A DNA stretch of 36,789 nt from Gammaproteobacteria bacterium. Its GTDB lineage: Bacteria > Pseudomonadota > Gammaproteobacteria > SG8-11. This document shows, piece by piece, positions 5,421 through 36,785 of this stretch. The position numbers were made by a program, and so were the translations under genes. Under the pieces are notes generated by a model. The model ran no database searches. It had not been told where the DNA came from and saw only the letters and a list, made by a program, of their open reading frames with translations. The stretch is taken from the NCBI GenBank assembly GCA_031421535.1, contig JANOOV010000417.1, positions 1-36,789 on the forward strand, read 5' to 3'. How positions within the stretch are numbered: position 1 is the stretch's first letter; every line of letters begins with the position of its first letter.

Positions 5421-5446
5421 TCAACAGGCATTTTTAGGAGTTTCTG

Positions 5447-5480
5447 AAAAGCGCCGCGAGTCATCGCGGCGCTTTTTTTG
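5447..5480 (+). terminator. intrinsic terminator of the rpsP-rplS operon
   Basis: aaaagcgccgcga-gtca-tcgcggcgctttt is a perfect GC-rich stem followed by a T7 run. Confidence 0.9.
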
Positions 5481-5521
5481 TTGTGCGCTTGCCCGAATCG
5501 ACTTAGATTGTTCGCCATGAT

Positions 5522-5795
5522 CCTAGAAACGGCAGTTGAACGGCCTGTGCAGTGCGACCCGTTGAGTGCAGGGCAAGGCGCAACGAGCGAGGAATAGCGA
5601 GCTATTCCGATGATTCCCATCCGCGCTGGCTTTGCGCGGCTCTGGGACGAGTTGCAACGAAGCCATGCGCACAACGGGGCGTGCCGCACAGGCCGTAGCG
5701 GGCCTCACCTTCTGGGTGAAGCATGTAGGGGCTAAAAATATCAATACCTGTGCACACTTGCTTAGGCCTTGCAGCGGTCAACTGCCGTTTCTAGG
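5522..5795 (-). mobile_element. MITE-like element, copy A (274 bp, inverted relative to copies B and C, with a 37-bp internal insertion)
   Basis: The ends are CCTAGAAACGGCAGTTGA...TCAACTGCCGTTTCTAGG. The direct repeat ATGAT flanks it at 5517-5521 and 5796-5800. The interior aligns with copies B and C. Confidence 0.85.
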
Positions 5796-6314
5796 ATGAT
5801 ACTTGATATGCGAACCAAGCCGGTATTGCGCTCCTACGAGGCCGTGGTGCCGTTGCCGGTCGGATCGTGGCAGGTGGGGATACGCACCGATGGCCGTGCG
5901 GTGATCGATGTTGACTTTATCGACGCGCAGGGCTTCGAGCGCATCACACCCAGTGCTGTGGCCACCGAAGCCGCGCAGCAATTGCAACGTTATCTCGACA
6001 ATCCGCAGTGGCGCTTTACACTCCCGCTAAAATTAAACGGCACGCCGTTCCAACAGCGAGTGTGGACCGCATTGCAAACCCTGTCTGCTGGGGAGACGCG
6101 CAGCTACGGCGAATTGGCGCGGCGTCTTAACAGCGCCGCGCGGGCGGTGGGCGGTGCGTGCCGCGCGAATCCCATTGTGATCGTGATCCCCTGCCACCGT
6201 GTGGTTGCGGCTCACGGCCTGGGTGGATTTTCGGGAGCGACCGCTGGCAGTGAACTGTTACTCAAACAGTGGTTACTGGAACATGAGTCGTATAATCCTA
6301 GAAACCTCAGTTGA
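5796..6314 (+). CDS. ogt: methylated-DNA--protein-cysteine methyltransferase (Ogt/MGMT)
   Basis: Active-site motif IPCHRVV is present. The start is uncertain: ATG 5796 lies in the MITE target duplication, and ATG 5808 is the alternative. The TTG at 5769 is inside the MITE. The last five codons and the stop are MITE-B sequence. Confidence 0.85.
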   Translation: MILDMRTKPVLRSYEAVVPLPVGSWQVGIRTDGRAVIDVDFIDAQGFERITPSAVATEAAQQLQRYLDNPQWRFTLPLKLNGTPFQQRVWTALQTLSAGETRSYGELARRLNSAARAVGGACRANPIVIVIPCHRVVAAHGLGGFSGATAGSELLLKQWLLEHESYNPRNLS

Positions 6315-6532
6315 CCGCTTCAAGGCGTAAGAAAGTTCATGATGAAATTGAAGTTTCTTATTCAACCGAGCTTCACCATTTGGGTGAGCGCCGCTACGAC
6401 ATGCGCAGCGCGCCCCCTTGGGCGCATGGCAGTGTTGCAACTCGTCGGAATAGCTCGCTATTCCTCCTCCTTGCGCCTTGCCCTGCACCCAAGGGGTCAC
6501 ACTGCGCATGCCGTCCAACTGAGGTTTCTAGG
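6297..6532 (+). mobile_element. MITE-like element, copy B (236 bp)
   Basis: The ends are CCTAGAAACCTCAGTTG...CAACTGAGGTTTCTAGG. The direct repeat ATAAT flanks it at 6292-6296 and 6533-6537. Confidence 0.85.
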
Positions 6533-6535
6533 ATA

Positions 6536-7465
6536 ATGTCTAAACCAGCCGCTGAAGTCATGCCGCTGCGCGAAGTCGATGTACAGGCGGTTGAGGCGTT
6601 TCTCGATCAGTTGTGGGTGGAGCGTGGGTTGAGTGAAAACACCATCAGCGCCTACCGCCACGATTTATCCGGACTCGCCAAGTGGCTGCAACTGCACACC
6701 GCGCCTTGCCTTACCGATGCACGGCGTGAACACCTGCTCACTTTTCTGGGCGAACGCGCCCAAGGCGGGGCGCGCCCACGTTCCACCGCGCGCTTGTTGT
6801 CAAGCCTCCGGCGATTTTATCAACACCTGGTCCGCGAGGGGCGATTGCAAGTCGATCCCAGTTTGCGCATCGACGCCCCCAAACTGGGGCGCAGCTTACC
6901 CAAGGCGTTGACCGAGCCCGAAGTCGAAGCACTATTGGAGGCGCCTGACACCCAACAGGTGCTGGGTATGCGTGATCGCACCATGCTGGAACTGCTTTAC
7001 GCCGGTGGCCTGCGCGTGACCGAACTCGTATCGCTGAAGTTGTCGCAGATCAATCTGCAGCAGGGCGTGGTGCGTTTGATCGGCAAGGGCGGCAAGGAGC
7101 GGTTGGTGCCGCTGCATGAAGAATCCTTGCGCTGGCTGCGTGACTATATGGACGACAGCCGCGTGCAACTCAACAAGGGGCGCGGCAGCGAATATCTGTT
7201 CACCACCCGACGGGGTGAGTGCATGACCCGGCAGGCTTTTTGGTATCTCATCAAGCGCTATGCGGCCATCGCCGAAATCAGCAAGGCGTTATCGCCGCAT
7301 ACCCTGCGCCATTCGTTTGCGACGCATCTGCTCAACAACGGCGCCGACCTGCGTGTGGTGCAGATGCTGCTGGGCCACAGTGATTTGTCCACGACACAGA
7401 TTTACACCCACATTGCCCAAGAGCGGCTGAAAGAGTTTCACGAGATACATCATCCGCGTGGCTGA
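6536..7465 (+). CDS. xerD: site-specific tyrosine recombinase XerD
   Basis: MSKPAAEV...AFLDQLWVERGLSENTISAYRHDL and HTLRHSFATHLLNNGADLRVVQMLLGHSDLSTTQIYTH. The track ORF 6311..7465 is extended upstream only by read-through of MITE B. ATG 6560 is an alternative start. Confidence 0.9.
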   Translation: MSKPAAEVMPLREVDVQAVEAFLDQLWVERGLSENTISAYRHDLSGLAKWLQLHTAPCLTDARREHLLTFLGERAQGGARPRSTARLLSSLRRFYQHLVREGRLQVDPSLRIDAPKLGRSLPKALTEPEVEALLEAPDTQQVLGMRDRTMLELLYAGGLRVTELVSLKLSQINLQQGVVRLIGKGGKERLVPLHEESLRWLRDYMDDSRVQLNKGRGSEYLFTTRRGECMTRQAFWYLIKRYAAIAEISKALSPHTLRHSFATHLLNNGADLRVVQMLLGHSDLSTTQIYTHIAQERLKEFHEIHHPRG

Positions 7466-19467: not shown

Positions 19468-19553
19468 GCATCCAGGGTTCATTTTTTTTCGATACCCGCT
19501 ATGCTCAGGGGGTATGCTTGACGTTTTTATAAAAAGGGTTGGCAGGGAAAATT

Positions 19554-21554
19554 ATGCAGAATGCTTTTGCGCGGTTTCTGGCGTTGCGCAGTTGGTCGTT
19601 GCGCAGCAAAGTAAATTTGACGGTGGGGCTGTGTTTTTTGTTGGTGATGACCCTGGTCACAACCTACAACGCGCGCCGCGAAACCGCGCGCCTGACGCAG
19701 TTTGCCGAAGAGCAGACCAAAGACCTGACCACGTTTTATTTCGACAGCCTGAATACCATGATGCTCACCGGCACCATGGATCAACGCACGATTTTGCGCA
19801 AAAAAGTTCTGGCGCGGCGTGCGGTGGTCGATGCGCGCGTGGTGCGCGGCGAGCCGGTCAAGCAACAGTTCGGCCCCGGTTATCCGGAAGAACAGCCGCT
19901 GGACGATTTTGACCGGCGTGCGCTGGCCGGTGAGGAAATTTCCGTTATTGAAGACCGTGACGGCAAACGTGTAATGACGGTGCTCACGCCGTTTCGCGCC
20001 ACCGAAAACACCCGCAACGTCAATTGCTTGCAGTGTCATCACGTGACTTCGGGCGCGATCAACGGCGCGGTGCGTATCAGTTTTTCACTGGAGAAGCTCG
20101 ACGCTTCCGTACGCCAGGAAGTGTGGGTGTCGATTCTTGCCAATTTTGCGTTGCTGGCAACCGGGCTGCTGCTGGTGAATCTGGTGATGCGGGCCTGGGT
20201 TACTAATCCGCTGGCGCAATTGATGAAGGTGGTGCATCGGCGTGCGGCAGGTGAGGAAAGCGTGCGTGCCGAAGTGACGAGCGAGGATGAAGTCGGTCGG
20301 CTGGCGGCGGCATTCAATACGCTGGCGGAAAATATCATGATCGGCGCCAAACGCGAGCATGACTCGGCCGCAGAGTTGCGTTCTAAAGTCGCGCGGCTGC
20401 TGGACGTGATTCATAAAGTGACCGACGGCGACTACGACGTGGACGTCGGCTTCAGCGGGACGGACGCCATCGGTGATCTGGCCGGTAATTTGCAGATCAT
20501 GATCACCTACATTCGCAACTCCATTGAAGAAAAACGCGCGGCGGTGGAAGTTTTACGTCGGCAGGTGGATGAAATTCTCGGCGTGGTGACCAAGGCGGCG
20601 GAAGGTAATCTTACCGGGCGCATCACGCTTGCCAACAGCGACGCCATCGGCCAGTTGGCGAGCGGCGTGCAGCGCATGATCGACAGCCTGAGCAGTCTGG
20701 TGGCGCAGGTGCAGCGCTCCGGTATTCAAGTGGCGTCGTCCACCACCGAGATTGCCGCGACGTCCAAGCAGCAGGACGCGACCGCCGCCGAACAGGCGGC
20801 CACCACCAACGAAATTGTCACGACCGCAACGCAAATTTCCGCGACCTCGAAAGAACTGGAAAGCACCATGAACGAAGTTGCCGGAATCGCCGAAGTCGCG
20901 GCACGTTCCGCGACGCTCGGGCAGGCGGGCTTGGCGCGCATGCAAACCACCATGGGACAGATCGTGGACGCTTCCGGTTCGATTGGCGCAAAACTGGAAA
21001 TCCTGAATGAAAAAGCCGGCAACATCGGCATGGTGGTGACGACCATCAATAAAGTCGCCGATCAAACCAATCTGTTGTCACTCAACGCCGCCATTGAAGC
21101 CGAAAAAGCCGGTGAATACGGTTTTGGCTTTGCGGTGGTCGCGCGCGAAATCCGCCGCCTGGCCGATCAAACGGCGGTGGCGACGCTGGATATCGAACAG
21201 TCGGTGAAAGAAATGCAAAGCGCGGTCTCGGCCGGTGTGATGAGCATGGAAAAATTCTCCGATCAGGTGCGCCGCAGCGTGGACGATGTGACGCAGGTCA
21301 GCCAGCAGCTCGCGCAGGTCATCGATCAGGTGCAGGAACTGCGGCCGCGCTTTGAGTCGGTACATCAAAGCATGCACTTGCAGGCCAAAGGCGCGGAACA
21401 TATTCATCAGTCGATGACCCTGCTCAATGAGTCGGCGCAGCACACGGCGGATTCGATTCGCCAGTCCAACGCGGCCATCGAGCGCCTTAACGACGCCGCG
21501 CATAACCTGCAAAACGGCGTGACCAAGTTCAAGGTGCGCAAGGACGCTGATTGA
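19554..21554 (+). CDS. wspA: methyl-accepting chemotaxis protein, WspA-position receptor with periplasmic CXXCH (heme c) sensor domain and multiple HAMP repeats
   Basis: ATG 19554 has an AGGGA RBS. Two TM segments flank a ~150-aa domain containing NCLQCHH. HAMP-like repeats follow ([35 protein letters not shown]), then the signalling hairpin [34 protein letters not shown]. Confidence 0.85.
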
Positions 21555-22015
21555 TGCTGTATTTGTTATTCCACGTCAACGATGAAAGCTACGCGGTGGA
21601 TGTGCGCGAAGTGATCGAAGTCGTACCCAAGGTGAAGTTGCGCTCCATTCCCAAGGCGCCGGATTATGTTGCGGGACTGCTCAATTATCGCGGCGCGAGT
21701 GTGCCGGTGCTTGACTTGTGCATGCTGTTGCACGAAAGGAAGTGCGCGGCGGTGTTCAGCAGCCGCATTGTGCTGATGAAATATCCGGACGCACACGCAG
21801 TGGCACGCGTACTCGGTCTGTTGGCGGAGCAGGTGACCGATACCCTGCAATGCACCGCCGAAGCGTTTCGCCCCAGTACGCTGCTGCATACGGCGGCGCC
21901 GTATTTGCGTGAGGTGACGACGTACCGCGATCATCTGGTGCAGCGCATCGACGTCAGCGCCTTGCTGCCGACCAAAGTTCAGGCACTGCTGTTTCAACCT
22001 AGAAACGGCAGTTGA
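21554..22015 (+). CDS. wspB: CheW-like coupling protein (WspB position)
   Basis: The CheW fold is readable (YAVDVREVIEVVP..IPKAPDYVAGLLNYRGASVPVLDL). Its ATG overlaps the MCP stop (TGATG). The last five codons and the stop are MITE-C sequence. Confidence 0.8.
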   Translation: MLYLLFHVNDESYAVDVREVIEVVPKVKLRSIPKAPDYVAGLLNYRGASVPVLDLCMLLHERKCAAVFSSRIVLMKYPDAHAVARVLGLLAEQVTDTLQCTAEAFRPSTLLHTAAPYLREVTTYRDHLVQRIDVSALLPTKVQALLFQPRNGS

Positions 22016-22234
22016 CCGCTGCAAGGCACAAGCAAGTGAAAACCGGTATTGACCTTTTTGGCTCAGGCAAGCTTCACCCTTTGGGTGAGGCCCGCTACGG
22101 CGTGTGGAGCACGCCCCGTTGTGCGCATGGCTTTGTTGCAACTCGTCGGAATAGCTCGCTATTCCTCGCTCGTTACGCCTCGCCCTGCACCCAACGGGTC
22201 GCACTCCACACGCCGTTCAACTGCCGTTTCTAGG
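21998..22234 (+). mobile_element. MITE-like element, copy C (237 bp), inserted between wspB and wspC
   Basis: The ends are CCTAGAAACGGCAGTTGA...TCAACTGCCGTTTCTAGG. The direct repeat TTCAA flanks it at 21993-21997 and 22235-22239. Confidence 0.85.
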
Positions 22235-22244
22235 TTCAATAATC

Positions 22245-23492
22245 ATGCCGCTCAAAGCCATCAAGGATTTATTAAGGCAAACCATCGGTCTGAATGTCAG
22301 TTCGGTGGGGGCATCGAATTTTGAACGTGCGGTGCGGCAGCGCATGAAGTCGCTTGGGATTCAAGAGGTGCACGCTTACAGCCTGAAGCTGCGCCATGCC
22401 GATGAGATGCGCGAACTCATCGACGAAGTCGTCGTGCCTGAAACCTGGTTTTTCCGTAATCCGGCGTCGTTTACCGCCCTGCAGCAATTTGCCGTCGGGC
22501 GCCGGGCAGGGCGCGCCAACGGCAGAAAACTCATGGTGCTGAGCATGCCCTGCTCAACCGGTGAAGAACCGTACACCATCGCCATGGCCCTGGATCAGGC
22601 CGGATTGCAGCCGAATGAATATCAGATCGATGCGTTCGATATCAGTCAACGGTTGCTGACCAAGGCGAAACGCGGTGTGTATGGGCGCAATTCGTTTCGC
22701 AATAAAGAGAACGAATTCAGGGACCGGTATTTCGACCTGGTCGGCGGCATCTACGTTTTAAATGACACGCTGCGCAACGCGGTTAATTTTCAGCAAGGCA
22801 ATTTGCTGGATAAACATTTCGGTATCGGCGGGCAACTCTACGACGTGATTTTCTGCCGGAATTTACTGATTTATTTTGATCGCGACACGCAAAATCTGGC
22901 GATGTGGAAATTTCATAACATGCTGGCGGACGACGGCCTGTTATTGCTTGGGCATGCGGAAACGCCGGATTTTCTGCGCGGCAATTTCACCCGCTCGGAA
23001 TATGCGCGGTCGTTTTCCCACCACAAGGTGGTGCACGGCGCCGCATCAGTAAAGGCAGGCGGGGCGCCGTCCGCTAAAACAAAAACAACTGCGCCCTTCC
23101 CGTCGTACGCCAAACCGCGTCTGGAATTTTTGGAAACTGTCGATCTCAAGAGCGCCGCCCCATTGCCGCAAACCGACGCCGCGATACTGCGTGATGCGGC
23201 CCGCCTGGCCAACCGGGGTGAGTTACGCGAGGCGGGCGCCCTGTGCGAAAACTACTTACGCGAACATACGACTTCAGCGCAGGCTTATTACCTGTTGGGT
23301 TTGGTGCGCGAAGCGGAAGGCAAGCACCAGCTGGTGGGCGAATTGTTCAAAAAAGCGGTGTATCTCGACCCCAATCATTACGAGGCCATGATCCATCTGG
23401 CGTTGCATCTGGTGCGTTACGGTGATGCCGACAGCGCCAGGAGTTTGCAGCAACGTGCGCAGCGGGTCTTGAGCAGAAAGAAGCCGGAATAA
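22245..23492 (+). CDS. wspC: CheR-type methyltransferase with C-terminal TPR (WspC position)
   Basis: ETWFFRN, SMPCSTGEEPYTIAMAL and IFCRNLLIYF, followed by TPR-like AQAYYLLGLVREAEGKHQLVGELFKKAVYLDPNHYEAM. Confidence 0.85.
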   Translation: MPLKAIKDLLRQTIGLNVSSVGASNFERAVRQRMKSLGIQEVHAYSLKLRHADEMRELIDEVVVPETWFFRNPASFTALQQFAVGRRAGRANGRKLMVLSMPCSTGEEPYTIAMALDQAGLQPNEYQIDAFDISQRLLTKAKRGVYGRNSFRNKENEFRDRYFDLVGGIYVLNDTLRNAVNFQQGNLLDKHFGIGGQLYDVIFCRNLLIYFDRDTQNLAMWKFHNMLADDGLLLLGHAETPDFLRGNFTRSEYARSFSHHKVVHGAASVKAGGAPSAKTKTTAPFPSYAKPRLEFLETVDLKSAAPLPQTDAAILRDAARLANRGELREAGALCENYLREHTTSAQAYYLLGLVREAEGKHQLVGELFKKAVYLDPNHYEAMIHLALHLVRYGDADSARSLQQRAQRVLSRKKPE

Positions 23493-23499
23493 TCCATCT

Positions 23500-24195
23500 A
23501 TGCCTGATCCCAAGCACGACATGACAACCGCCCAGATCGTCAATTGCTGGAACAGCATCGGCGTGTGGGGTCGGGAACGGCCACGTTGTCCGGTGTTACT
23601 GGAAGTTATTCATTGCCGCAATTGCGACCAATACATTGCGGCCGGACAGCGTGTGCTGCAACGGCCGATGCCCAAAGAATATCAGCAGGAGTGGACGCGC
23701 CTGCTGGCGCACAAGAAAGACACCGATGCCGGGCACCACTTGATGATTATTGTTTTTCGCATTGGTAATGAGTGGTTTTCATTGCCGGTCAATTATTTGC
23801 AACACGTCGAAACACGGCGCGCGATTCACAGCGTTCCGCATCGCAACTCCGCCATCGTAAAAGGCGTCGTCAATATCGATGGCAAAGTGAAAATGTGTTT
23901 TTCACTAGGTGCATTGCTGGGCATCACCGAATCGGCGACGGCGTCGGACTCGACCCGGCGCACCGCCGTTTACGAAGGACTGGTGGTATTGAAGAACGCC
24001 GGGCGCAGCTACGTATTCCCGGTGACCGAGGCGTTGGAGCTGGCGCGCATTTCACTTGAAGAATTAACCGCAGTTCCGTCCACGGTATCCGCAGTCTCAG
24101 CCAGTTATTTGCTGGGTCTTGTGCAGTATGCCGGGCACCGCATCGGGCACCTGGATGCCGATCTGGTCATGGCCGGTTTCGAGCGCAGTCTCTAA
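23500..24195 (+). CDS. wspD: CheW-like protein with N-terminal four-Cys motif (WspD position)
   Basis: The N-terminus is CWNSIGVWGRERPRCPVLLEVIHCRNC. The CheW domain follows (IIVFRIGNEWFSLPVNYL...VKGVVNIDGKV). Confidence 0.8.
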   Translation: MPDPKHDMTTAQIVNCWNSIGVWGRERPRCPVLLEVIHCRNCDQYIAAGQRVLQRPMPKEYQQEWTRLLAHKKDTDAGHHLMIIVFRIGNEWFSLPVNYLQHVETRRAIHSVPHRNSAIVKGVVNIDGKVKMCFSLGALLGITESATASDSTRRTAVYEGLVVLKNAGRSYVFPVTEALELARISLEELTAVPSTVSAVSASYLLGLVQYAGHRIGHLDADLVMAGFERSL

Positions 24196-26432
24196 TGGCA
24201 AAAGATCACGGCAAAAATATCCGCGACCTGTCCATGCAGGAGCTATTTCAGATTGAGATTGAGACTCAGAGTGAGACTCTTACAGAGGGCTTGCTGAGTC
24301 TGGAAAAGAATCCGCTGCAGCCCCCCGCCATCGAGTCGTTGATGCGCGCCGCGCATTCGCTCAAAGGCGCAGCGCGCCTGATGGGATTGCGCGCCATCGA
24401 GCAGCTCGCGCACGTGCTTGAGGATGTCTTCGTCGCTGCGCAAAAAAATTCCATCGTGATCGGCGCAGATGCCGTCGATGTCTGTTTGCGCGCCGTGGAT
24501 ATGATGCAGCAACTTGCTGCGCGCAAAGAATCCACCGACAGTGTCGAGTCGGAGTCAGGTCTCGATATTATCGTGAATGCACTTGAATCCGTGCGGGAGG
24601 GCGCTGCGTTACCGGCACTGGCACCGCATTCGACGGATCGCAGTATTGATCCGGCGCTGCCGGCTGAGTGGCCTGCGGCGCAGGGGCACGAGCGTGTGCT
24701 GCGGGTCAGCGCCGAACGCCTGAACCGGATTCTCGGCCTGAGCAGCGAGTTGGTGGTGGACGTGCGGCATGCGCAGAAGCAGGTGCGGGCGCTGTTACAG
24801 ATGAAGAAGAAACACGCGGACGTGATGCAGACGCTGGATTTGCTGCGCGCTGCATTGTCGGGTCTTGGCACCCATGAACGCGCACATATTTATCTGGCGC
24901 AGTTGCGCAGGCGTGCGGCCGGTGTCCAGCAACTATTGACCGAGAATCTGGTGGAGGTCGATGCGTTTGATCGGCGTCTGAGCATCACAACCGCGCGCCT
25001 GCATCGCGAAGTGATTTTGACGCGCATGCGGCCCTTGGCCGACGGCGTGCAGGGGTTTGCGCGCATGGTGCGCGACCTGGCACGCGCCACCGGAAAAAAA
25101 GTCGAATTGATTATTCATGGACTGCGCACCGAGATCGACCGTGAAGTGCTGGAAAAACTTGAAGCACCGTTGACGCACCTGATCCGTAATGCGATTGACC
25201 ACGGCATTGAGTTGCCCGAGGAACGACTCACCAACAACAAACCCGAGCACGGCACGGTGCAATTGGCGGCGAGCTACAGCGGCGGCATGCTGCTGATCGT
25301 GCTGGAGGACGATGGTTGCGGCGTGGACTTCGCGCAGCTCAAAAGAAAAATCGTCGAACGTGGATTAAGTCGTGCCGATATGGTCGAACGTCTGAGCGTC
25401 GACGAGCTGGTCGAATTTTTATTTCTGCCGAAATTTTCCATGCGTGATGCGTTGACCGAATTATCCGGTCGCGGCGTCGGTCTGGACGTAGTGCGCGACG
25501 CGGTGCAAGCGCTGGGCGGAACAGTCAAGACCAGCACTCATCCGGGGCGCGGCACGCGGTTTACGTTGCACTTGCCCATTACCCTGTCACTGATGCCGAC
25601 GCTGCTGGTGGAGATCGGGCAGGAAAGTTATGCGTTTCCGTTGGCGCGCATTGACCGGTTGCTGAAGATCTCGGCGGCGCAGGTGCAAACCATTGAGGGC
25701 CATCAATACACCGTGATCGACGGCGACAATGTCGGCCTGGTGGACGCGTGCAGTTTGTTCGGCAAAACCGCCGGGAGCGACGCCCATCCACAGCTTGAAG
25801 TCGTGGTATTAAGTGATCGCCTTAATCGTTACGGTGTGGTGGTGGACCGCATCGTCGGTGAACGGGTGCTGGCGGTGCAAAGCCTGGATCCGCGCATGGG
25901 CAAGGTGCGCGACATCAGCGCGGCGGCCTTGCTGGAAGACGGCACGCCGACCTTGATCATCGACGTCGATGATTTCGTGCGTTCCATCGACGGTGCGCGT
26001 CGCGGCGGCACGCTACAGCACATGGAAGAATGGGCCGATAATCAAAAACGCAGAGTCGAGAAACGCGTGCTGGTGGTCGATGATTCCATCACCGTGCGCG
26101 GCGTGGAAGCCAAGCTGCTTGAGATGCACGGGTACGTGGTGGTCACGGCGGTGGACGGTATGGATGGCTGGAATCGTGTGCGCAGCGAGCGTTTCGATTT
26201 GGTCATTACCGACGTGGATATGCCGCGCATGGATGGTGTCGAGTTGGTTGACATGATCAAGCACGACGCGCAGTTGAAGACCATTCCGGTGATGATCGTC
26301 TCGTACAAAGACCGGCCGGAAGACCGGCAACGCGGGCTGGAGGCAGGTGCAGACTATTATTTGACCAAGGGCAGTTTTCACGACGAAACCTTGATTGACG
26401 CCGTTATCGATCTGATTGGCCGGGCTAAATGA
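24195..26432 (+). CDS. wspE: hybrid CheA histidine kinase with C-terminal receiver (WspE position)
   Basis: Hpt (AAHSLKGAARLMG), HATPase (IRNAIDHGIE, GRGVGLDVV, GRGTRFTL), a CheW-like domain and a receiver (VLVVDDSITVR...LVITDVDMPRMDG...K). Confidence 0.9.
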   Translation: MAKDHGKNIRDLSMQELFQIEIETQSETLTEGLLSLEKNPLQPPAIESLMRAAHSLKGAARLMGLRAIEQLAHVLEDVFVAAQKNSIVIGADAVDVCLRAVDMMQQLAARKESTDSVESESGLDIIVNALESVREGAALPALAPHSTDRSIDPALPAEWPAAQGHERVLRVSAERLNRILGLSSELVVDVRHAQKQVRALLQMKKKHADVMQTLDLLRAALSGLGTHERAHIYLAQLRRRAAGVQQLLTENLVEVDAFDRRLSITTARLHREVILTRMRPLADGVQGFARMVRDLARATGKKVELIIHGLRTEIDREVLEKLEAPLTHLIRNAIDHGIELPEERLTNNKPEHGTVQLAASYSGGMLLIVLEDDGCGVDFAQLKRKIVERGLSRADMVERLSVDELVEFLFLPKFSMRDALTELSGRGVGLDVVRDAVQALGGTVKTSTHPGRGTRFTLHLPITLSLMPTLLVEIGQESYAFPLARIDRLLKISAAQVQTIEGHQYTVIDGDNVGLVDACSLFGKTAGSDAHPQLEVVVLSDRLNRYGVVVDRIVGERVLAVQSLDPRMGKVRDISAAALLEDGTPTLIIDVDDFVRSIDGARRGGTLQHMEEWADNQKRRVEKRVLVVDDSITVRGVEAKLLEMHGYVVVTAVDGMDGWNRVRSERFDLVITDVDMPRMDGVELVDMIKHDAQLKTIPVMIVSYKDRPEDRQRGLEAGADYYLTKGSFHDETLIDAVIDLIGRAK

Positions 26433-27460
26433 AAATCGCAATCGTTAACGACATGTTCATGGCGGCGGAAGCGTTACGGCGCGCGGTCGTGACCAATACC
26501 GATCATCGCGTGATATGGATCGCCGAGAACGGGCGGGACGCCGTGGCGCGCTGCGCGACCGATCTGCCGGATCTGATCCTGATGGATTTGATCATGCCGG
26601 AAATGGACGGTGTGGAAGCGACGCGACGCATCATGGCCGCTACGCCGTGCGCTATTTTGATCGTAACCGCGTCGGTGGATGGCAACGCCGCGCAAGTGTT
26701 CGCGGCAATGGGTTGCGGCGCACTGGATGCGACCAACACACCGCTGTTGGGAACCCAGGGCAATGAGGCGGGCCGCGCGGAACTGCTCGCCAAACTCAAA
26801 ATCATTGAAATGCTGATTCGGCCGCGCCGTGTGCCGTCGGAACAACCCAAGGCCCTGCGGGCCAACGCACGGCCGCCGGCCGGTTATCAGCTGGTCGCAA
26901 TCGGCGCGTCGTCAGGCGGGCCGTCGGCGTTGATGACAATACTGGCCGCCTTGCCGACGGATTTTCCATTACCCATTGTCGTCATACAGCATGTGGACGC
27001 GCAATTTGCACCTGAATTGGTGGCCTGGCTGGGCACTCACACGGCGCTGAAAGTACGCGTTGCAAAATCTGACGTGCGCCTTGAGCCGGGTGTTGTCTAC
27101 GTCGCGGCGCGCGACGCGCATCTGGTGCTTAATGGCTGGGGCGCCCTGAGTTACAGTGCACAACCGCAGGATTTGCCGTATCGACCGTCGATTGATGTAT
27201 TTTTCAACAGTGTGCAGCAATATGGTCGTGGCTGCTGCATCGCGATTCTGTTAACCGGGATGGGGCGTGACGGCGCCGAGGGGTTATTGCATTTGCGCCG
27301 CGACGGACATCTCACCATTGCGCAGGATCAGGCGACGTGCGCCGTGTACGGAATGCCGCGCGCGGCGGCTGAGCTGGATGCGGCCGTCCATGTGCTGCCG
27401 TTACTTGATATTGCACCGTTCGTGATGCGCAGTGTAACTCCGGAGGAAAAAACACCATGA
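26429..27460 (+). CDS. wspF: CheB-type methylesterase with receiver domain (WspF position)
   Basis: Receiver DLILMDLIMPEMDG. The esterase domain has AIGASSGGP, VIQHVDAQF and LTGMGRDGAEG. ATGA overlap at both ends. Confidence 0.9.
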   Translation: MKIAIVNDMFMAAEALRRAVVTNTDHRVIWIAENGRDAVARCATDLPDLILMDLIMPEMDGVEATRRIMAATPCAILIVTASVDGNAAQVFAAMGCGALDATNTPLLGTQGNEAGRAELLAKLKIIEMLIRPRRVPSEQPKALRANARPPAGYQLVAIGASSGGPSALMTILAALPTDFPLPIVVIQHVDAQFAPELVAWLGTHTALKVRVAKSDVRLEPGVVYVAARDAHLVLNGWGALSYSAQPQDLPYRPSIDVFFNSVQQYGRGCCIAILLTGMGRDGAEGLLHLRRDGHLTIAQDQATCAVYGMPRAAAELDAAVHVLPLLDIAPFVMRSVTPEEKTP

Positions 27461-28524
27461 GCGAAATCGACGAGCCTCTTGTGATTGCTGCGACGGATGC
27501 AAAATGCATCGTGCTGCTGGTGGATGACCAAGTCATGATCGGTGAAGCCCTGCGGCGTATGCTGGCGGATGAGGCCGACATCGAGTACCACTATTGTCAA
27601 GCGGCGAATCAGGCGCTGACGATGGCGGCGCAGTTAAGGCCTACGGTGATCTTGCAGGATATTGTCATGCCCGAGTCCGACGGGCTGAGTTTGCTGAAAG
27701 AATATCGTGCGGCGCCGCACACGCGCGCGGTGCCGGTCATCATGTTATCGACGCGTGATGACCCGCGTTACAAAAGCCAGGCCTTTGCCGCCGGGGCCAG
27801 CGATTATCTGGTAAAAATCCCTGATCAGATCGAGTTGATCGCACGGATTCGCGCGCATTCGCGCAGCTATCTGGCGCACGAACAACGCGACGCAGCCTTC
27901 AGGCAGTTGCACGTGCTGCAGCGCGAGCTCGAAGCCAGCAACCGCGAGCTGCACCGCATTTCCTGTCAGGACGGATTGACCGGTATTTTCAACCGCCGCC
28001 ATTTCGATACCTACCTTGATCAGGAATGGGCGCGCGCGCTGCGTGAAGGATCAAACATCGCGCTGGTGATCGCCGACATCGACTATTTCAAGGCGTACAA
28101 CGATCACTACGGCCATCCCGCCGGGGACGAATGTTTGCAAAATGTCGCACGTGTGTTCCGCGAGGTGCTGCAGCGCCCCGGCGATCTTGCCGCACGTTAT
28201 GGCGGCGAAGAGTTTGTGATGGTGTTGCCCAAGACCGATCTGGAGGGCGCCGCCGTGATTGCCGAGTCCGTGCGCGCGCGCGTCGAACGACTTAACATTG
28301 CGCACGAATTTTCCAAGGCGGCAAATTACGTCACCCTGAGTGCAGGAGTTGCGACGGTGCGTCCCAACCCACGCATGCGTCCGCCCGAGCTGGTGGGATT
28401 AGCCGACAAGGCGCTGTACCAGGCCAAGCAGGCTGGACGTAATCGCTGTGAGCAGGCACGTAACAATCAGGATGAACTCGCGATGCTGCATAACCGCAAT
28501 ACCAAGCCCGACGCGGACAGCTAG
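27457..28524 (+). CDS. wspR: response regulator-diguanylate cyclase (REC-GGDEF, WspR position)
   Basis: Receiver VILQDIVMPESDG, a coiled-coil linker, then DGLTGIFNRRHFD, an RPGD I-site directly upstream of ARYGGEEFVMVLP, and ADKALYQAKQAGRNR. Confidence 0.9.
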   Translation: MSEIDEPLVIAATDAKCIVLLVDDQVMIGEALRRMLADEADIEYHYCQAANQALTMAAQLRPTVILQDIVMPESDGLSLLKEYRAAPHTRAVPVIMLSTRDDPRYKSQAFAAGASDYLVKIPDQIELIARIRAHSRSYLAHEQRDAAFRQLHVLQRELEASNRELHRISCQDGLTGIFNRRHFDTYLDQEWARALREGSNIALVIADIDYFKAYNDHYGHPAGDECLQNVARVFREVLQRPGDLAARYGGEEFVMVLPKTDLEGAAVIAESVRARVERLNIAHEFSKAANYVTLSAGVATVRPNPRMRPPELVGLADKALYQAKQAGRNRCEQARNNQDELAMLHNRNTKPDADS

Positions 28525-36708: not shown

Positions 36709-36785
36709 CGGGGTATAGCGCAGCCTGGTAGCGCACTTGCTTTGGGAGCAAGGTGTCGAGAGTTCGAATCCCTCTACCCCGACCA
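36709..36785 (+). tRNA. tRNA-Pro (anticodon UGG), CCA encoded
   Basis: Manual fold: acceptor CGGGGTA/TACCCCG, D arm GCGC-AGCCTGGTA-GCGC, anticodon arm CTTGC-TTTGGGA-GCAAG (anticodon TGG), T arm GAGAG-TTCGAAT-CCCTC (one A-C mismatch), then ACCA. Confidence 0.93.

Follow-up and report, generated by a model that had tools for sequence, protein, structure and literature searches.

A miniature inverted-repeat element family at gene boundaries of a gammaproteobacterial contig, with a divergent IS1380-like insertion sequence as its likeliest mobiliser

Contig JANOOV010000417.1 (assembly GCA_031421535.1) derives from a Gammaproteobacteria bacterium placed in the GTDB lineage SG8-11, and its positions 1 to 36,789, read on the forward strand, form the stretch of DNA analysed here (36,789 nucleotides; hereafter the window). 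Three homologous non-coding elements lie within 36.8 kb in this window and, with a probability put at roughly 85%, they are copies of a miniature inverted-repeat transposable element (MITE) whose likeliest mobiliser is a divergent insertion sequence (IS) of the IS1380 clade, ~1.63 kb in length. The elements are insertions bounded by target-site duplications, the family leaves the same footprint in other genomes, an IS with matching ends and a matching target exists, and the left end of the MITE is homologous to the left end of that IS. Small size, terminal repeats, copy-specific duplications, empty sites, a non-coding interior, dispersed copies and a matching autonomous element, the features by which a MITE is recognised, were all found. 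An initial annotation, made from the letters of the window, had called the elements non-autonomous MITEs, a reading that has been borne out by the empty sites, by the duplications around copies elsewhere and by the IS with matching ends.

Copy 1 (5522–5795, 274 bp) is on the reverse strand and is thus inverted relative to copies 2 (6297–6532, 236 bp) and 3 (21998–22234, 237 bp), which are both on the forward strand. Each copy ends in terminal inverted repeats of 17–18 bp that have the form CCTAGAAAC-NN-CAGTTGA (in copy 1 at 5522–5539 and 5778–5795); these are perfect over 18 bp in copies 1 and 3, whilst a mismatch at position 18 leaves 17 perfect base pairs in copy 2. Each is also flanked by its own 5-mer, which is ATGAT for copy 1 (5517–5521 and 5796–5800), ATAAT for copy 2 (6292–6296 and 6533–6537) and TTCAA for copy 3 (21993–21997 and 22235–22239). 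Re-reading of the sequence and alignment of the copies returned the same three homologous elements, coordinates, terminal repeats and distinct 5-mers as had been annotated initially. The pattern CCTAGAAACNNCAGTTGA has six matches in the window, one for each end of every copy, against a chance expectation of 0.01 (0 of 100 shuffles), and besides the three copies no further copy or fragment of the element was found in the window. Alignment of the three over their full length gave a mean column identity of 83%. The extra length of copy 1 comes from a nested palindromic insert of 37 bp (TGATTCCCATCCGCGCTGGCTTTGCGCGGCTCTGGGA; 5611–5647, reverse strand), which appears as a gap in the copy alignment. 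The insert is also present in a 272-bp copy at another site in another genome (L037, 102–373, in the metagenome-assembled genome (MAG) JANMQQ01), which marks it as the signature of a 272–274-bp sub-lineage that went on transposing, and not as a private event; it may itself be a second tiny element. The longest open frame in the elements is ~77 codons, and the absence of any credible open reading frame (ORF), as originally proposed, is upheld by a pattern of variability that lacks codon periodicity across 44 family members.

In syntenic relatives none of the three junctions is interrupted, and in-silico excision of an element together with one 5-mer gives a gap-free alignment with these relatives. 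At sites 1 and 2, relatives with XerD proteins 86–94% identical share the gene order rpsP-rimM-trmD-rplS-ogt-xerD-dsbC, with a spacing of ~100 bp between rplS and ogt and an ogt/xerD overlap of 20–32 nt, and in nucleotide alignments the window is interrupted precisely at the predicted junctions. The closest relative at these two sites (L260) aligns without a gap once either element and one 5-mer are removed. The copy 1 site is empty in L121, L124–L127 and L260, and the uninterrupted site in L121 holds a single ATGAT. At site 3, where an exact look-up of the CheR of the window gave no record, relatives with CheR proteins 81–84% identical have a cheW–cheR gap of 2–7 nt; the site is empty in L261 and L262, and after excision the window (...TTTCAATAATCATG...) is co-linear with the relatives (...TTCCAATAATAATG...). 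The initial annotation had proposed a search for empty sites at the same junctions, and had named occupation of those junctions in distant relatives as the result that would speak against a MITE; the search found empty sites at all three junctions in syntenic relatives, and occupation is contradicted at each of them. The three elements are genuine insertions at all three sites, acquired in recent ancestry.

The terminal repeat was sought in public genomes by a scan that covered one genome per species and returned at least 120 stretches. Copies elsewhere were defined, at loci outside the window among the matches listed, by the pairing of inward-facing termini, and they number at least 76 in 74 loci; it is to these listed matches that the following figures apply. 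The copies cluster at sizes of 232–239 bp and 157–170 bp, with 234 and 237 bp the most common lengths. Tabulation of the 5-mers flanking copies elsewhere, a check suggested at the outset, revealed perfect 5-bp duplications around 48 of the 76 copies and duplications with one mismatch around a further 18, as compared with 5.2 perfect duplications expected, and 14 at most, when flanks were paired at random (2,000 shuffles). The target logo is W-T-N-A-W, with T at the second position in 147 of 152 flanks and A at the fourth in 150 of 152. The left and right 5-mers carry the same central base in 64 copies and complementary ones in 5, which argues that the 5-mers are direct repeats and not an extension of the inverted repeat. 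Hosts are mostly MAGs and isolates of the Burkholderiales, Rhodocyclales and Nitrosomonadales type (Betaproteobacteria), including Rhodoferax, Acidovorax, Polaromonas, Ottowia, Accumulibacter, Dechloromonas, Sulfuricella and Gallionellaceae; some matches are in Gammaproteobacteria and a few are in Chlamydiae, Verrucomicrobia and Acidobacteria. The copies nearest to those of the window are in the MAG JANMQQ01 (85–91% identical), and in many taxa the copies adjoin unrelated genes. A query with 30 nt of the terminus against annotated plasmids located copies in plasmids of Hydrogenophaga, Variovorax and Polaromonas, and BLAST of the whole element against plasmids gave no match. Viral contigs gave 50 isolated matches, none of which was paired with an inverted match at the spacing of a MITE; the element is therefore no feature of phages.

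A second family uses the same ends. It consists of AT-rich, near-perfect palindromes of ~163 bp (L005 4343–4506 and 7625–7781; L019 6868–7029; L030 7206–7368; L046 7555–7717; also in L062, L096 and L113), which have only the terminal repeat and the W-T-N-A-W duplication in common with the 235-bp family. As their interiors are unrelated, several non-autonomous lineages appear to use the same ends, which is expected if one transposase serves them all. Similar short elements were seen in MAGs of Chlamydiae/Parachlamydiaceae (L048, L065). Several unpaired termini resemble solo or truncated ends, and none of the unpaired termini in the 120 listed genome loci adjoins a transposase ORF. Solo left ends in L035, L038, L041, L044, L109 and L112 comprise 23 nt, CCTAGAAAC-NN-CAGTTGACCGC(T), preceded by a W-T-N-A-W-like 5-mer and followed directly by ordinary genes, and no right end was seen within 3 kb of them; truncation of full copies could account for them, as could one-ended events of the kind known for ISEcp1. 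In the viral contigs L134, L138 and L141, the 17-nt pattern is accompanied by a second match with three mismatches, 309 nt away on the same strand, and this pair probably represents a coding motif that is repeated and has nothing to do with the MITE.

A candidate autonomous partner was found on a plasmid of Polaromonas sp. P1-6 (CP087967.1, L179), where a 1,631-bp IS occupies positions 5592–7222 of L179 (343356–344986 of CP087967.1), runs from CCTAGAAACGGCAGTTAG to CTAACTGCCGAAAATAGG and is enclosed by a 5-bp TTTAA duplication. The IS encodes a 510-aa protein (UUZ66186.1) annotated ‘transposase’, and a 234-bp MITE copy is situated 358 bp from it in the same plasmid. The best NCBIfam match of this transposase is to the IS1380 family (E = 1.6e-45, profile positions 8–416 of 419); it scores above threshold for both PF13701 (DDE_Tnp_1_4; 86.5 bits, cut-off 34.7) and PF01609 (70.3 bits), and it is 22% identical to the transposase of ISEcp1 (E = 4e-18). 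Among 28 relatives, three of the residues that align with acidic residues of ISEcp1 are invariant (D158, D237 and E373) and a fourth, E368, is conserved in at least 90%. A search of the PDB by sequence returned no match for the transposase; its predicted fold resembles Tn5 (E = 1e-7) and piggyBac/piggyBat (E = 3e-5) and nothing else significantly, in a model of moderate quality (pLDDT 61) for which the piggyBac match has a TM score of ~0.32. Relatives of the transposase that are 74–92% identical are very abundant in metagenomes, a cluster look-up for hosts of the IS gave Polaromonas as the only named one, and in public records the clade is annotated merely as ‘transposase’ or ‘hypothetical protein’.

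Among 79 metagenome loci that were fetched, 65 further complete copies of the IS were recovered. Their left ends read CCT(A/C)TTTCCGGCAGTTGA and their right ends, in reverse complement, CCTAAAAACGGCAGTT, and their flanks conform to W-T-N-A-W (T at the second position in 125 of 126 and A at the fourth in 124 of 126). The exact 18-nt terminus of the MITE is present in two of these copies, L215 and L238, the latter of which also has a perfect ATAAT duplication. A length of 1,627–1,666 bp, ends that start with CCT and a 5-bp duplication agree with the IS1380 family, whose members are ~1.5–2 kb long, have ends that start with CC and duplicate 4–5 bp of target. The search for an autonomous partner that the initial annotation had recommended therefore led, outside the window, to a ~1.63-kb IS with CCTA...GGCAGTT ends, a W-T-N-A-W target and 5-bp duplications. 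The terminal repeat, which had at first been assigned to no family, is placed by this sequence evidence with a divergent branch of IS1380.

The MITE and the IS have more in common than their termini. Searched with an nhmmer profile made from 44 MITE copies, the IS gives a co-linear match, MITE positions 1–93 corresponding to IS positions 1–93, with a best E-value of 5.7e-8 and with 18 IS copies at E < 0.01. Within this region the MITE has a small conserved hairpin, TCACC-N5-GGTGA (22075–22087 on the forward strand in copy 3), which is a helix of the consensus structure and, extended by one base to TCACC-N5-GGTGAG, matches an IS hairpin of the form TCACC(N)ATGGGTGA. In 58 of 63 IS copies (L181–L259; for example L238, 1418–1510) the TCACC..ATGGGTGA hairpin lies 50–100 nt inside the left end; it holds the start codon of the transposase, ATG GGT GAA (MGE...), in keeping with the protein consensus MGEAKR. 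In the IS, the hairpin could sequester the start codon and so limit translation from read-through transcripts; in the MITE, the small hairpin is best read as a relic of it. The co-linear match up to position 93 and the start-codon hairpin together indicate that the left part of the MITE is the left end of the IS through to the first codons of the transposase. The MITE would accordingly be built of three parts: the left ~93 nt of the IS (terminal repeat, 5′ untranslated region and first transposase codons), a hairpin module of ~120 nt, and an inverted copy of the terminal repeat.

It is proposed that the MITE depends for its movement on a transposase that is encoded elsewhere and acts in trans. 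An IS1380-like DDE transposase would bind the CCTAGAAAC-NN-CAGTTGA termini (~18–22 nt) and make a 5-nt staggered cut at W-T-N-A-W, the repair of which would produce the flanking 5-bp direct repeat. Both the mobilisation of the MITE by this transposase and the chemistry of the reaction are inferred from the match of ends, target and duplication length. Outside the elements the window contains 516 W-T-N-A-W sites, and scarcity of targets is therefore unsupported as the cause of the location of the copies at gene boundaries. With the target so common, this location more likely reflects the survival of harmless insertions than targeting of the boundaries.

The interior of the MITE is highly structured. 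In copy 3, a long internal hairpin extends over 22097–22216 on the forward strand (arms 22097–22131 and 22182–22216) around a central GGAATAGC/GCTATTCC palindrome, and folding of this copy is more stable than that of shuffled sequence (z = -6.8). An alignment of 44 copies from different genomes, with a median identity to the consensus of 70%, was used to examine covariation, and gave a consensus structure in which the terminal repeats are paired and a long internal helix is formed. Paired cells make up 93.1%, as opposed to 79.0% in column shuffles; cells changed on both sides number 262, as opposed to 81; and the covariation score is 0.362, as opposed to 0.124 in shuffles (0 of 500 as high) and at most 0.083 when the registers are slid by 1–3 columns. 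Covariation between the two ends extends to the NN bases of the terminal repeats (alignment columns 10–11 with 239–240; in the window 5531–5532/5785–5786, 6306–6307/6522–6523 and 22007–22008/22224–22225), with G-C in 19 copies and C-G in 18, and the next position has T-A in 5. The NN pairs seen include GG/CC, CG/CG and CT/AG, and the ends stay complementary in each copy, which points either to amplification from symmetric master copies or to a mechanism that homogenises both ends. Wobble mismatches are G.T in 77 cases and A.C in 54, and in the internal hairpin, with one column excluded, 32 and 43; as this amounts to no bias between the strands, the data do not favour an RNA made from one strand over a constraint at the level of DNA or on both strands. 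A strand-specific RNA structure is accordingly unsupported.

Several of these observations weigh against a MITE mobilised by an IS1380-like element. The hairpin is kept by compensatory change, which a purely parasitic element need not show. The window has no transposase gene, as was stated in the initial annotation, and the partner was found outside it. The transposase of the Polaromonas IS scores 155.5 bits against a curated NCBIfam cut-off of 180 for NF033539 (IS1380 family transposase), for which reason the partner is best called a divergent IS1380-like clade. The termini of most IS copies depart from that of the MITE at 3–6 of 18 positions, exact left ends being present in 2 of 63, and perfect duplications flank just 12 of the 63 distinct metagenome IS copies. 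The three window copies are ~15–20% apart from one another, which indicates that there has been no recent burst and that the family may be inactive in this host. With regard to the IS flanks, those of L189 and L190 (LNAO01 contigs) are swapped reciprocally, ATAAT...TTTAT in one and TTTAT...ATAAT in the other, a pattern that points to IS copies that have recombined or inverted with one another, or else to chimeric assembly of the repeats, which is a plausible cause; such swaps probably explain the scarcity of perfect duplications. The compensatory changes could alternatively mean that the hairpin is a selected structured module, of RNA or DNA, which acts on neighbouring genes (for example in mRNA stabilisation, in attenuation or as a protein-binding site) or is needed for transposition (for example as a structural requirement of the IS1380/piggyBac type, such as synapsis through a fold-back single strand); in a related version, hosts would tolerate or exploit it at operon junctions as a portable structure, of RNA or DNA, with a cis-regulatory role. 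Pairing is indeed kept in dozens of genomes from several bacterial orders, length is held tightly at 232–239 bp across taxa, and even the variable NN bases covary. Descent from palindromic master copies or hairpin-templated repair could also keep the pairing, however, and the mismatches, being without strand bias, lend no support to a strand-specific RNA. Orientation relative to flanking genes shows no clear bias either (14 versus 7, from a noisy classifier based on GC3), a scan found no promoter-like or terminator-like sites inside the copies, and Rfam gave no match in the elements at gathering or permissive thresholds. Selection for such a module is therefore considered unlikely; if true, it would make the family a model for how transposases of this kind recognise non-autonomous substrates.

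The position of all three copies on gene boundaries, their stable folding and the covariation of the hairpin could also be expected of a palindromic intergenic element that is conserved and immobile, regulatory or REP-like, and belongs to these operons. That idea is refuted by the empty orthologous junctions of close relatives, with which excision restores co-linearity; each copy, moreover, has its own 5-bp direct repeat, copies in many taxa stand beside unrelated genes, and Rfam recognises none of them, so that hardly any credence can be given to it. A 5-bp duplication and an AT-rich target are likewise what would be left by a Tn3-derived inverted-repeat miniature element (TIME) moved by a Tn3-family transposase. 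Tn3-family elements, which make 5-bp duplications at AT-rich targets, have ends of ~38 bp that start with GGGG, as opposed to the 18-bp ends starting with CCTAG seen here, and the IS with matching ends, to which the left 93 nt of the MITE are homologous, encodes a PF13701/IS1380-like transposase; a Tn3 origin is thus extremely improbable. Very little more can be said for the proposal that the element encodes a small protein from a TAG-to-TAG frame of ~76–77 codons. Counted from element position 3, this frame is open in 21 of the 25 copies with a length divisible by three, an ATG near position 46 is semi-conserved, and 234 and 237 bp, the favoured lengths, suit such a frame. Mean entropy is nevertheless 1.18, 1.26 and 1.19 at codon positions 1, 2 and 3, 19 of the 44 copies are not a multiple of three in length, other forward frames are often open too, as happens in G+C-rich DNA, and the conserved ‘LGE’ is accounted for as what is left of the transposase start MGE. 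A coding function was rejected on the lack of codon periodicity and the many lengths that are not multiples of three, and is judged very improbable.

The MITE mobilised by an IS1380-like element is of an ordinary kind, and what is understood by a bacterial MITE is unchanged by it. As with other bacterial MITEs (Correia elements of Neisseria and IS-derived elements), it is ~160–320 bp long and has terminal repeats, a target-site duplication and no transposase, and it shares with them many dispersed copies, a fold-back structure, insertion at gene boundaries and ends common to an autonomous IS. It differs from the well-known MITE families in its terminal-repeat sequence, its 5-bp palindromic W-T-N-A-W target and its IS1380-like partner; Correia elements and IS630-type MITEs both duplicate TA. 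The partner IS resembles the IS1380 family and ISEcp1 in having one DDE transposase (PF13701 and PF01609), 5-bp AT-rich duplications and ends that start with CCTAG (the ISEcp1 left end, CCTAGATTCTACGT, was verified in L180), whereas its transposase is ~90 aa longer than that of ISEcp1 and only 22% identical to it; the window elements, for their part, are non-autonomous derivatives and not the IS. TIMEs, a described class (PMC4133298), are likewise non-autonomous and likewise have a 5-bp duplication at AT-rich targets, whereas the present elements lack ends of the Tn3 type and have a partner transposase from another family.

A eukaryotic comparison can also be drawn. piggyBac has been paired with IS1380-like transposases as their eukaryotic counterpart (PMC5718144, PMC10813416), and its ends consist of TTAA followed by CCCTAGAAAGATA (PMC3078864). 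The elements described here have TTNAA followed by CCTAGAAACGG, both targets are palindromic and AT-rich, and the fold match, though weak, points in the same direction, whereas the duplication is 5 bp (W-T-N-A-W) here and 4 bp (TTAA) in piggyBac, the hosts are bacterial and Tn5 is the better match by fold. The likeness of the termini extends over ~8 bases; it is suggestive, and could be due to chance or convergence. A search of the literature for the terminal-repeat string returned irrelevant matches only, and in the full-text literature no description was found of this terminal repeat or of an IS1380-derived MITE, so that within that literature the family is apparently undescribed. Its significance lies in the link that it makes between a very abundant and mostly unnamed transposase clade and the ends, the 5-bp W-T-N-A-W target and the non-autonomous partner of that clade, together with the resemblance of termini and target to eukaryotic piggyBac. 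The elements are unannotated, are common in Betaproteobacteria MAGs and often have contigs ending inside them.

The insertions have altered the genes on either side of them. The statement that the copies lie exactly on gene boundaries agrees with the positions of the genes around all three; the genome had also been called GC-rich, and this holds only moderately (57% G+C in the window). Copy 1 sits between the rplS terminator (5446–5477) and ogt, on an in-frame ATG, such that the right ATGAT (5796–5800) supplies an ATG in frame with ogt. Copy 2 sits in the ancestral overlap of the ogt stop and the xerD start, and copy 3 separates the stop codon of cheW from the last sense codon, in the interval between cheW and cheR (wspB/wspC-like). 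The terminal repeat gives a stop within 18 nt in two of three frames (CC TAG; CCT AGA AAC NNC AGT TGA), and the ogt and cheW frames extend 15 nt into it to end at its TGA (6312–6314 inside the copy 2 repeat for ogt, 22013–22015 inside the copy 3 repeat for cheW). The new C-terminal ends are ...PRNLS* in the ogt frame and ...PRNGS* in the cheW frame; Ogt now ends in ...SYNPRNLS where it formerly ended in ...SYNV, and CheW is longer by five residues. Copy 2 has parted xerD from the start codon that it had ancestrally, the ATG in GAACATGAGTCG at 6283. XerD must therefore begin either at an ATG at 6536, which is formed by the right ATAAT (6533–6537) and G6538 and stands where the ancestral protein had Met5, or else at an in-frame start within the element. 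The xerD frame is open through all of copy 2 (ORF 6311–7465), with an in-frame ATG at 6401, and XerD is thus either 4 residues shorter (start 6536) or equipped with an N-terminal extension encoded by the element. Gene callers are likely to mis-call xerD in the presence of copy 2, and the elements more generally distort gene calls, as the xerD frame crosses copy 2 and ogt and cheW enter the terminal repeat. As the insertions split the overlapping ogt-xerD pair and the cheW-cheR junction, a strong hairpin may now have to be read through for xerD and the Wsp-like operon to be expressed.

The operon entered by copy 3 is part of a complete Wsp-like chemosensory cluster (19539–28524), which comprises an MCP, CheW, CheR-TPR, a CheW-like protein and a CheA-receiver hybrid, followed by ORFs that are sized like CheB and a diguanylate-cyclase-type gene (judged by size only); copy 3 breaks this cluster between the first CheW and CheR. 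A tRNA gene (36709–36782; Rfam RF00005, 63 bits) lies at the right edge of the window.

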